Assembly (NCBI GenBank): GCA_028684955.1
Contig: JAQUEY010000002.1
Coordinates: forward strand, 2,382 to 66,381
From: Eubacteriales bacterium
Lineage (GTDB): Bacteria > Bacillota > Clostridia > Saccharofermentanales > UBA5734
Direction of reading: 5' to 3'
DNA length: 64,000 bases
The position numbers and the translations under genes were made by a program. Positions 57,567 through 62,228 of this stretch are shown here, in pieces. How positions within the stretch are numbered: position 1 is the first letter of the stretch; every line of letters starts with the position of its first letter. Under the pieces are notes generated by a model. That model made no database searches. It was not told the origin of the DNA and saw only the letters and a program-made list of their open reading frames with translations.

Positions 57567-58665
57567 AACGCAAAAGCTAGGCATCCTCCTGGTCGACAAA
57601 CCGTGCGGCTTGACTTCTTTTGGTGTTGTCTCCCGCTTGCGGCGCCTGATCGGTGAAAAGAAAATCGGCCACACCGGTACGCTCGATCCTTTTGCCGAGG
57701 GTTTGCTGGCCATTTGTGTCGGCAAAGCGACAGCAGCTGTCCAATTCATGGATACCTACGATAAAACGTATCAGGTGCGCGTACTTTTTGGTGCTGCGAC
57801 CGATACAATGGACCTGACCGGAACATTGACAGGCTCACATGACTTTTCCTCACAGGAATTATCCCAGCTCGCAGCCACTGGTTTTATACCGCTTCGCCAG
57901 GCGGTGCAAGACTTGACGGGTGAACAGCTGCAAGTGCCACCGATGTATTCTGCAGTCAAAGTCGAAGGACAACCTCTCTATGCTCTGGCCCGTGCCGGGC
58001 AGACGATTGAACGCCAGCCACGTCCGATCGTCATCCACCGGGCCATCCTGGATGGCATCGATTGCCGGACAAAGACAGAACCAGGTGGGCCCAGGTTATC
58101 GTGCGACCTGACACTGGAGGTATCCAAGGGAACCTATATCCGGGTGATAGCCGATGAACTTGGACAGAAACTGGGCTGGTTTGCCCATGCCGAGCGTCTG
58201 GTCCGGACCCGGGTCGGCCCCTTCGATTTGAGCCAAGCCGTGACTTTGCAGGCCCTGGAAGACCGTTTTGACGAGCTGGCCGAGGCCTTGCGGCAGAAGG
58301 GACTGGATCCGTCTGACCGGTCCACGCGACGTCTGGTCCAGGACCAGCTCTGGCAGGAGTTGTCCGAGTCTGGCCAAGTCCATAGTCTGACCGAAGCCCT
58401 GTCTGGTTTTCCCATCTTGCGGTTGTCATCTGACCAGGTCAAAAAGCTGGTCCACGGGCAACAGCTGACGCTGGACCAGGCCCAGATCCTGACACAGTCC
58501 GCACCAGAGGTCCGGCCACAGAACGGACTTCGCCTGGCACTCCATGGGCCTGATGGACTTGCTGGCATGGGTCACCTTGAGACAATGCCAGATGGGACCC
58601 CCCCACACTACCGAATTGTAACGGAAAGGATTTTCATCCATCATGAACATCTTCTATCCGAGTGA
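57559..58665 (+). CDS. truB: tRNA pseudouridine(55) synthase
   Basis: VDKPCGLTS, GHTGTLDP, PPMYSAVK, VSKGTYIR. Confidence 0.95.
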   Translation: MAETQKLGILLVDKPCGLTSFGVVSRLRRLIGEKKIGHTGTLDPFAEGLLAICVGKATAAVQFMDTYDKTYQVRVLFGAATDTMDLTGTLTGSHDFSSQELSQLAATGFIPLRQAVQDLTGEQLQVPPMYSAVKVEGQPLYALARAGQTIERQPRPIVIHRAILDGIDCRTKTEPGGPRLSCDLTLEVSKGTYIRVIADELGQKLGWFAHAERLVRTRVGPFDLSQAVTLQALEDRFDELAEALRQKGLDPSDRSTRRLVQDQLWQELSESGQVHSLTEALSGFPILRLSSDQVKKLVHGQQLTLDQAQILTQSAPEVRPQNGLRLALHGPDGLAGMGHLETMPDGTPPHYRIVTERIFIHHEHLLSE

Positions 58666-60916: not shown

Positions 60917-62228
60917 CCGACTTTCTGCATTCACCCTGACCCAGACCATCGATCCTTTGACCGGCCATGAACTCCAGACGTGGCGTCACCGCTGCGGTTT
61001 TGTGGTCAAAGTTCTGCCCCGGCCGGGCTTTTCCCGCCGTTTTGCAGCTTTGACGGTCCCGTACGGTTCCATACACACACACTTTGAAAAAGCTGGCCAG
61101 TCCAGCCAAGTTCCGGATGGCACGGCCCATTTCCTGGAACACTGTGTTTTCAGCAGGGATGAAGAAGGCGGACTGCTCGGACGTTTGTCTGCTTTGGGGG
61201 CTTCGGCCAATGCCTACACCAGCCACACCCACACCATGTATTATTTTTCGAGCGTTTTCCATTTCGAAACCGCGCTGGACCTTTACCTGGATGCCGTTCT
61301 CGCTCCGTATCTGGAACCTGACCGGGTCGAAGCCGAGCGGCCGGTCATACTGGCCGAGCTCGACCAGTATCTCGATGATCCCGACACCGTCTGCTATGTC
61401 CAGCTGCTGGACCGCCTGTACAAAAGTCACCCTGTGCGCCAGGATATCGGAGGCACTGCCGAATCTGTCCAGTCGATCAAAAGCGAACATCTCAAACAGG
61501 TCTGGTCGACTTTTTACCAGCCAGGCAAACTGTCTTTGACTCTGGTCGGGGACATGGATGAAAAGCAGGTCCTGCTCCGGCTGGCAGACCGTCTGGAGAA
61601 CAGCCTTGAAATCCTGGGTCAGGCGATCCTGCCGGATGAACCTCTCTACCCGAGTGAGCAGGTGGTCAGCAAAACCATGGATGTCTCAGCGCCTTCTTTT
61701 TTAGTTGGAATCAAAGATCCGACGATCCTGCCCCAGACGCCCTTGTATGGACGCGAACTTGTCATGCGCCAGCGCATGGCCCGCCTGGCTTTTGACACAT
61801 TGCTGTCTCCCGCTTCGCCCCTGTACGAGGACTTGTTTGCCCGGGGCTTGATCAACGATTCCTTCGGTTATCATTATGCCTGCGAACCCAGCTTTGCCTT
61901 CCTGGCTGCCGGTGGTGAATCCCAGGATCCCAAGGCTGCTGGTGAGGCCTTGATCACAGGCTTACGCCAGGCCTTCACCACAGGCCTGGACCCGGATCTG
62001 TTCGAGATCCAGAAACGCGCCGCCGCAGGTGATTTCGTCCGGTCGCTCGATTCGATCGACCACAGCGGCCTGGTCCAGGCCCAGTGCAACCAGCATGGCC
62101 TCGACCTTTTTGACTACCCGGCCCTCTATGATAAAATGGATGCAAAAATGGCTGCCCAGAAACTGGCCTTCCTATCCGATCCGCAGAGCTACACCCTGTC
62201 AATCATCAACAGTCAAACGGAGGAATAA
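60909..62228 (+). CDS. M16 family peptidase (YmfH-like)
   Basis: GTAHFLEH (HxxEH), GASANAYTS, HPVRQDIGG; overlaps the upstream stop. Confidence 0.9.
   Translation: MIDRLSAFTLTQTIDPLTGHELQTWRHRCGFVVKVLPRPGFSRRFAALTVPYGSIHTHFEKAGQSSQVPDGTAHFLEHCVFSRDEEGGLLGRLSALGASANAYTSHTHTMYYFSSVFHFETALDLYLDAVLAPYLEPDRVEAERPVILAELDQYLDDPDTVCYVQLLDRLYKSHPVRQDIGGTAESVQSIKSEHLKQVWSTFYQPGKLSLTLVGDMDEKQVLLRLADRLENSLEILGQAILPDEPLYPSEQVVSKTMDVSAPSFLVGIKDPTILPQTPLYGRELVMRQRMARLAFDTLLSPASPLYEDLFARGLINDSFGYHYACEPSFAFLAAGGESQDPKAAGEALITGLRQAFTTGLDPDLFEIQKRAAAGDFVRSLDSIDHSGLVQAQCNQHGLDLFDYPALYDKMDAKMAAQKLAFLSDPQSYTLSIINSQTEE

Follow-up and report, generated by a model that had tools for sequence, protein, structure and literature searches.

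We describe here a gene fusion in a 64,000-nucleotide (nt) stretch of DNA (hereafter designated the window) from an Eubacteriales bacterium of the order Saccharofermentanales (assembly GCA_028684955.1, contig JAQUEY010000002.1), in which RibF, the bifunctional enzyme making flavin mononucleotide (FMN) as well as flavin adenine dinucleotide (FAD), continues into a YmfF-like subunit of the M16B peptidases and is followed by the gene for a catalytic YmfH-like subunit. The gene order is infB-rbfA-nrnA-truB-ribF::ymfF-ymfH-lgt-ftsW, the genes overlapping or being tightly packed (Table 1).

The fused reading frame and its two modules

In the open reading frame (ORF) list of the 64-kb window, a single plus-strand frame at 58643–60916 comprises 757 codons (calculated mass, 83.5 kDa), and in the DNA read over 59400–59760 the RibF tail passes into the M16 part without a stop codon. 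Pfam domains were assigned to residues 18–167 (FAD_syn), 184–307 (Flavokinase), and 492–687 (Peptidase_M16_C) of the product. The NCBIfam profile of RibF, TIGR00083, matched residues 19–307 over profile positions 3–288 of 290 with 249.8 bits (curated equivalog cut-off, 184.35 bits), and NF047422 (YfmF_fam) matched residues 321–751 over positions 1–411 of 412 with 228.6 bits, while a motif search found no HxxEH zinc site anywhere along the 757 residues. One ORF, its Pfam and NCBIfam domains, and the missing HxxEH motif thus bear out the preliminary description of this DNA, according to which RibF runs without a stop into a complete, non-catalytic M16 subunit; the product size of about 83 kDa given there agrees with the calculated one. 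With the same NF047422 profile, unfused YmfF proteins of Clostridia scored 336–391 bits and an independent fusion from another family (f19, see below) 345.6 bits, and the M16 half of the present protein is, as judged from its sequence, YmfF-like and of a divergent subfamily. The linker between the two modules amounts to about 8 residues, and the stretch spanning the fusion junction reads HHACEQGYELAK.

Conservation was examined in an alignment of 72 fusion proteins. In the RibF module, His27, Gly29, and His30 of the HxGH motif, Ser165, Pro207, Thr208, and Asn210, and Glu258, presumably the counterpart of the catalytic Glu of Corynebacterium ammoniagenes FAD synthetase (CaFADS), are invariant, and Ser164 and Arg169 are at least 90% conserved. 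The M16 landmarks Arg332/Phe333, Tyr382/Gly383, and Asn611/Leu614/Gly615/Asp617/Ser620/Leu622 are likewise invariant. The length of the junction is constant among the fusions of this clade, over 34–100% identity, and the loop of residues 539–563 is variable and predicted by AlphaFold2 to be disordered. Matches to Flavokinase and RibF in the source genome (a 270-contig draft, 98.5% complete) were confined to the fusion. Because it is the sole copy in the genome and has kept its catalytic motifs, the RibF part almost certainly makes the FMN and FAD of the cell.

The AlphaFold2 model of the 757 residues, calculated on the fusion alignment, had a mean predicted local distance difference test (pLDDT) score of 91.2 and a predicted template modeling (pTM) score of 0.89. 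In this model, the last RibF helix (residues 290–310) is separated by four residues from the first M16 strand (residues 315–320), with pLDDT above 90; read from pLDDT and pTM alone, the connection between RibF and the M16 subunit would be rigid. Foldseek searches with the M16 half returned as best matches the integrative model of Bacillus subtilis YmfF-YmfH (9a7y_A) and an Enterococcus faecalis protein (3d3y), both with a template modeling (TM) score of 0.88, and those with the RibF half returned the FAD synthetases 3op1 and 2x0k (TM, 0.82–0.90). No solved entry spanning both halves was found by Foldseek.

Table 1 Features of the ribF::ymfF locus (positions in the window)
Feature	Position	Strand	Remarks
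infB	52976–56197	+	
rbfA	56204–56569	+	
nrnA-like DHH/DHHA1 gene	56553–57566	+	
truB	to 58665	+	overlaps ribF start
RibF module, type I bifunctional FMN adenylyltransferase (FMNAT) and riboflavin kinase	58643–59578	+	residues 1–312
HRGH (HxGH motif, FMNAT)	58721–58732	+	residues 27–30
GKDYRFG (RibF module)	59009–59029	+	
SSSRIR (SxxxR motif, FMNAT)	59132–59149	+	residues 164–169
PTAN (riboflavin kinase)	59261–59272	+	residues 207–210
NIESF with invariant Glu258	59408–59422	+	
Junction HHACEQGYELAKV	59564–59602	+	residues 308–320; RibF tail, read-through former intergenic spacer, and first YmfF residues
YmfF-type non-catalytic M16B subunit	59603–60916	+	residues 321–757 (437 residues)
Genus-specific insertion between the two M16 halves, predicted disordered	60257–60331	+	residues 539–563
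LGGDVHSLLF..REQLGLAYSV conserved block (M16B subunit)	60482–60550	+	
ymfH ribosome-binding site AAGGAG (strong)	60896–60901	+	7 nt before ATG
ymfH, catalytic M16B subunit	60909–62228	+	439 residues, 48.8 kDa
HFLEH in YmfH	61128–61142	+	residues 74–78
EAERPVILAE, distal Glu block in YmfH	61329–61358	+	residues 141–150
lgt	62227–63153	+	
ftsW/rodA-family gene	63146 onward	+	runs off the window at 64000

Distribution and origin of the fusion

An identical or near-identical 757-residue product was found in NCBI, Logan, and ENA assemblies. In a search over 5.8 billion proteins, about 76 clusters at 90% identity carried the same three Pfam domains (729–818 residues, 35–100% identical), and HMMER, run exhaustively over 1.84 billion representatives, gave about 45 full-length fusions at the 50% identity level, with identity down to 29%. 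The distribution was taken from a whole-genome search, since a contig-locus scan, swamped by the generic RibF motif, gave 7 fusion loci. The frame is free of stops in all eight genomes of the genus, in 14 of the 14 genera of its family (f1; 54 genomes), in 19 genera of the sister family f3, and in one genus (g44) of family f4. In total, the order contains more than 100 such genomes from at least 34 genera, closed single-contig genomes included. These relatives are filed as Saccharofermentans sp. or as metagenome-assembled genomes (MAGs) of Clostridiaceae, Oscillospiraceae, or Saccharofermentanales, and public annotations call their fusion proteins plain RibF ('bifunctional riboflavin kinase/FAD synthetase'), by which the peptidase subunit is hidden. 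Within the order, a YmfH-family gene adjoins the fusion in all fusion-bearing genomes examined, occurs solely directly 3' of the fusion, and is absent where RibF stands alone, and an unfused YmfF has no instance. Family f2 gave zero M16 matches, and most of f4 gave only weak ones, the ORFs hit being unrelated M16 proteins about 970 residues long.

The fragmentation of the source genome into 270 contigs might raise the suspicion of an assembly or sequencing artefact, or of a pseudogene-like read-through that is recent and confined to this genome. Against this stand the recurrence of the product in assemblies of three archives, the open frame in the more than 100 genomes, including the closed ones, and the conservation of both halves under constraint. 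Two apparent split versions are also accounted for. One candidate for a stand-alone YmfF near the fusion clade (P0064) starts 142 nt from a chimeric contig end with unrelated first bases, and on the contig of a candidate split gene (P0272) each of the three genes ribF, ymfF, and ymfH has a shortened call, which we read as frameshift errors. The chance of an artefact is therefore negligible, and the fusion is a genuine, evolutionarily fixed one. The preliminary description would have been overturned had all close relatives carried separate genes; instead, they share the open frame across the genera counted above.

Gene order in the fusion-bearing relatives is identical to that of the window, and in relatives with a stand-alone RibF (for example, Mageeibacillus sp.) the order is infB-rbfA-nrnA-truB-ribF-lgt-ftsW, so that only the ymfF-ymfH block is missing from the backbone. 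Outside the order, 399 other Clostridia genomes were sampled, among which three families were relevant: in f50 and f69, truB-ribF, ymfF, and ymfH lie side by side as distinct genes, separated by a spacer of 15–25 nt, and in f19 another fusion of 777 residues is found. When the split proteins are aligned with the fusion, the C-terminus of RibF and the N-terminus of YmfF abut at fusion residues 309–316, and the stand-alone RibFs of the order end 4–7 residues past the same conserved (W)H. The 'WH' before the junction was considered as a novelty of the fusion and discarded, as stand-alone RibFs share it; at the junction, only Glu312, which is invariant, and the spacer that is now read through are specific to the fusion. 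Because other Clostridia keep the three genes separate and adjacent, the split termini abut on the fused junction, and the stand-alone RibFs end after (W)H, loss of a stop codon between operon neighbours with read-through of the spacer is the best account of the origin. Lineage-specific loss of a stop codon had been proposed in the preliminary description; the mechanism stands, yet the event is neither recent nor private, having spread over at least 34 genera and happened at least twice.

The number of events was derived from a maximum-likelihood tree calculated from the YmfF domains of 56 fused and 5 unfused sequences. The f19-type fusions (L101 and P0156) nest inside the clade of unfused YmfFs (support, 100/99; nested, 99/98), outside the main fusion clade. 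The label fused or unfused requires at least two changes on this tree, a single change being allowed in 0 of 200 bootstrap trees, and the f19 junction is unlike that of the main clade in both length and sequence. Since the f19-type fusions sit among unfused YmfFs and have their own junction, the RibF-YmfF fusion is judged from these sequences to have arisen at least twice.

Two further observations concern the surroundings of M16 genes in other Bacillota. On a Logan contig (SRR33118622, L104), an unfused ymfF-ymfH pair lies directly 5' of an HTH_25 gene, pgsA, cinA, and recA. Apart from the missing ymfI, the arrangement is that of B. subtilis, so that the peptidase pair has two alternative conserved homes. 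In Bacillaceae and Planococcaceae loci (L036, L042, L043, L046, and others), a different M16 gene occurs 4–5 kb downstream of ribF, which presumably corresponds to B. subtilis mlpA/ymxG after rpsO-pnpA; if this identity holds, two paralogous kinds of M16 genes recur near ribF in Bacillota.

The YmfH partner and the role of the fused chain

The first 8 nt of ymfH are also the last 8 nt of the fusion, and the YmfH product scored 293.3 bits on NF047421 (YfmH_fam; cut-off, 250 bits) and contains HFLEH, in agreement with the earlier statement that the next, overlapping gene encodes the HxxEH-bearing M16 subunit. The nearest solved relative of this protein is 4xea (E-value, 4.8e-57). The overlap and the ribosome-binding site are consistent with translational coupling of the fusion and ymfH, and a scan for terminators and promoters found no convincing terminator between the genes of the operon and no element of either kind separating the fusion from its neighbours.

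As for the other genes of the operon, the longest truB ORF starts with TTG at 57511 (384 residues) and shares 56 nt with the DHH gene before it; the TruB_N domain begins at residue 44, so that the true start is probably downstream, e.g., at the Met of MAETQKLG. The N-terminus of translation initiation factor IF-2 (53540–54050 of the window) contains long nested repeats of G/P/N/Y/R/Q.

In B. subtilis, YmfF and YmfH form a heteromeric protease that showed weak in vitro trimming of class III lanthipeptide leaders (PMC8960859). Cross-linking in cells captured the two proteins as a heterodimer (PMC10090944), and they were also recovered in the fraction of the inner spore membrane, the single mutants germinating normally (PMC13393411). 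By analogy, the fusion and YmfH would constitute a heterodimeric M16B peptidase. We consider probable, as a whole, the following explanation of the locus. In several lineages of Clostridia, ribF and ymfF-ymfH are co-directional neighbours at the end of a conserved infB-rbfA-nrnA-truB-ribF operon, and the ancestor of the clade lost the ribF stop codon, giving one chain of 83.5 kDa with FMN adenylyltransferase, riboflavin kinase, and a zinc-less M16B subunit. Its YmfF part would pair with YmfH, which supplies HFLEH, to form a clam-shell peptidase like that of B. subtilis, and RibF would be rigidly attached to the outer side of the inactive subunit. The likeliest consequence would be fixed 1:1 co-expression and co-localisation of the two activities, tolerated or mildly favoured, rather than new chemistry.

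Several points weigh against this explanation. The YmfF module falls below the equivalog cut-off of NF047422 (228.6 versus 285 bits), and its function could therefore have drifted; the rigid placement of RibF was deduced from the pLDDT and pTM of a predicted model; and two independent fusions, a length-invariant and predicted-rigid junction, and a possible triple fusion would also be expected under functional selection. The last of these concerns a gene call of 1217 residues on a 20-kb contig of a JGI metagenome (3300075153, P0049), which has the domains of RibF, YmfF, and YmfH in one frame within the context infB...lgt-ftsW-mraZ, and which would be a RibF-YmfF-YmfH triple fusion unless it results from a frameshift error where ymfF and ymfH overlap.

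Such selection would be expected if the M16B chamber and the FAD synthetase were functionally coupled, either sharing a client or regulating each other; for instance, occupancy of RibF by flavin or ATP might gate the clam-shell, or the peptidase might process or hand over a flavoprotein or a flavin-dependent peptide. Besides the points just named, the recurrence of the ribF-ymfF-ymfH adjacency in unrelated families of Clostridia (split in f50 and f69) and the lack of any unfused YmfF within the order speak for such a coupling. However, RibF is also fused to TruB, to which it has no known functional link, so that adjacency alone yields ribF fusions; f2 and most of f4 lack the peptidase pair and yet keep an ordinary RibF in the same context; Bacilli and some Clostridia keep ymfF-ymfH elsewhere, upstream of pgsA-cinA-recA; and no paper was found on a flavin requirement of an M16 peptidase or on a link between RibF and M16. 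We thus regard functional coupling as unlikely. Its 'Rosetta stone' form, in which RibF, rigidly placed on the inactive subunit, would sense or deliver FMN, FAD, or ATP so as to govern the opening of the chamber or to work on a flavin-related client common to both activities, seems to us rather improbable.

Fusions of ribF with its neighbours are common. In metagenomes, RibF is joined to its neighbour TruB (P0241, 616 residues) and to HAD and archease domains. A protein of 528 residues (P0109) is listed with P0241 and P0006 among the TruB-RibF and HAD-hydrolase-RibF fusions; P0006 (963 residues) seems to combine a C-terminal piece of TruB with RibF and YmfF, and probably has a mis-called start or represents a further neighbour fusion. 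RibF-archease proteins (PF01951 at the C-terminus) form a large, undescribed set (P0077–P0120; about 455 residues), mostly from Chloroflexi/Anaerolineae MAGs. Archease is normally the partner of the RNA ligase RtcB.

Relation to elongation factor P modification and to known systems

It had also been proposed that ymfF/ymfH are genetically linked in B. subtilis to the 5-aminopentanol modification of elongation factor P (EF-P), from which it would follow that YmfF/YmfH belong to the machinery acting on Lys32 of EF-P and that the RibF fusion supplies flavin for the pathway. NCBIfam names both NF047421 and NF047422 'EF-P 5-aminopentanol modification-associated', and the source genome encodes an EF-P (locus L096) with the B. 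subtilis-type loop KPGKGAAF containing Lys32, and a YnbB-family protein scoring 547 bits. Nevertheless, no orthologue of YmfI was found in this genome: in a search with NF047420, the best score, 176.3 bits, fell short of the cut-off (238 bits), and all matches were FabG-like or generic short-chain dehydrogenase/reductase proteins. The best of them was rejected as YmfI and identified as FabG, its gene adjoining fabH and being cut by the contig end. YnbB (PF06838), moreover, does not track the peptidase pair, as, of the 121 genomes of the order, 115 encode it regardless of YmfF/YmfH; it is present in all f2 and f4 genomes listed, which lack YmfH except for genus g44, and absent from genus g19, which carries the fusion.

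The genetic screen by which the EF-P modification pathway was defined yielded, as ymfI suppressors, gsaB, ynbAB, yaaO, yfkA, and ywlG, and neither ymfF nor ymfH is named in the paper (PMC5885033); the sole published biochemical activity of YmfF/YmfH is peptide cleavage (PMC8960859). In the literature, we found no experimental link of ymfF/ymfH to EF-P modification. The proposed genetic linkage thus goes back only to the adjacency of ymfI in B. subtilis and to the NCBIfam name; a link to EF-P is not supported here, and a role of the fusion in this pathway is very improbable. As regards the names, the models are called 'YfmH_fam' and 'YfmF_fam', the B. subtilis genes being ymfH and ymfF (BSU16860 and BSU16845), so that the letters are apparently transposed; yfmF is an unrelated ABC-transporter gene.

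Compared with type I RibF/RibC enzymes (C. ammoniagenes FADS, 2x0k; Streptococcus pneumoniae FADS, 3op1), the fusion shares both modules, the signature motifs, the fold, and the position after truB. These known enzymes are stand-alone proteins of about 310 residues, whereas the fusion bears an additional C-terminal M16B subunit of 437 residues with almost no linker. With B. subtilis YmfF/YmfH (Prot_819/Prot_176 family, PMC8960859; 9a7y), it shares the order of an inactive and then an active, HxxEH-containing subunit, the coupled adjacent genes, and the size of about 430 residues for each subunit. In contrast to the B. subtilis pair, the inactive subunit is here fused to RibF and scores under the YmfF cut-off, and the genes, which in B. 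subtilis lie upstream of ymfI...pgsA-cinA-recA, are here placed after truB-ribF and before lgt-ftsW in a genome without ymfI.

The same clam-shell with one zinc-binding half and one non-catalytic, substrate-binding half occurs in the M16B peptidases of Bacillus halodurans (3hdi), Sphingomonas sp. A1 (3amj), and Thermus thermophilus (TTHA1264/1265, 7v4y) and in the mitochondrial processing peptidase alpha/beta; in none of them, unlike in the fusion, is the inactive subunit joined to an unrelated biosynthetic enzyme. A plant FADS is fused to an inactivated FAD pyrophosphatase (PMC9678776), and together with TruB-RibF, HAD-RibF, and RibF-archease this marks RibF/FADS as a recurrent fusion partner, in some cases of operon neighbours (TruB-RibF, P0241). 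What sets the present protein apart from these fusions is that its partner is a peptidase subunit that itself must pair with a second protein. A literature search for a RibF-M16 architecture yielded no publication on it; its components are familiar ones, and their fused arrangement is undescribed.

YmfF/YmfH-type M16B pairs are widespread in Bacillota and are without a known physiological substrate. Fusion of one subunit to an essential FAD synthetase, in dozens of genera and arisen twice, provides a testable hypothesis for a partner process, for which the 83-kDa chain is a natural handle to pull down the complex; the NCBIfam label 'EF-P 5-aminopentanol modification-associated' receives no backing from the gene content of this clade. 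Should the 'Rosetta stone' interpretation hold, the fusion would be the first physiological clue to a widespread and functionally orphan pair. If the fusion is neutral, it would still be a clean and datable case of fusion between operon neighbours, of which the split, fused, and lost states all survive in living relatives.

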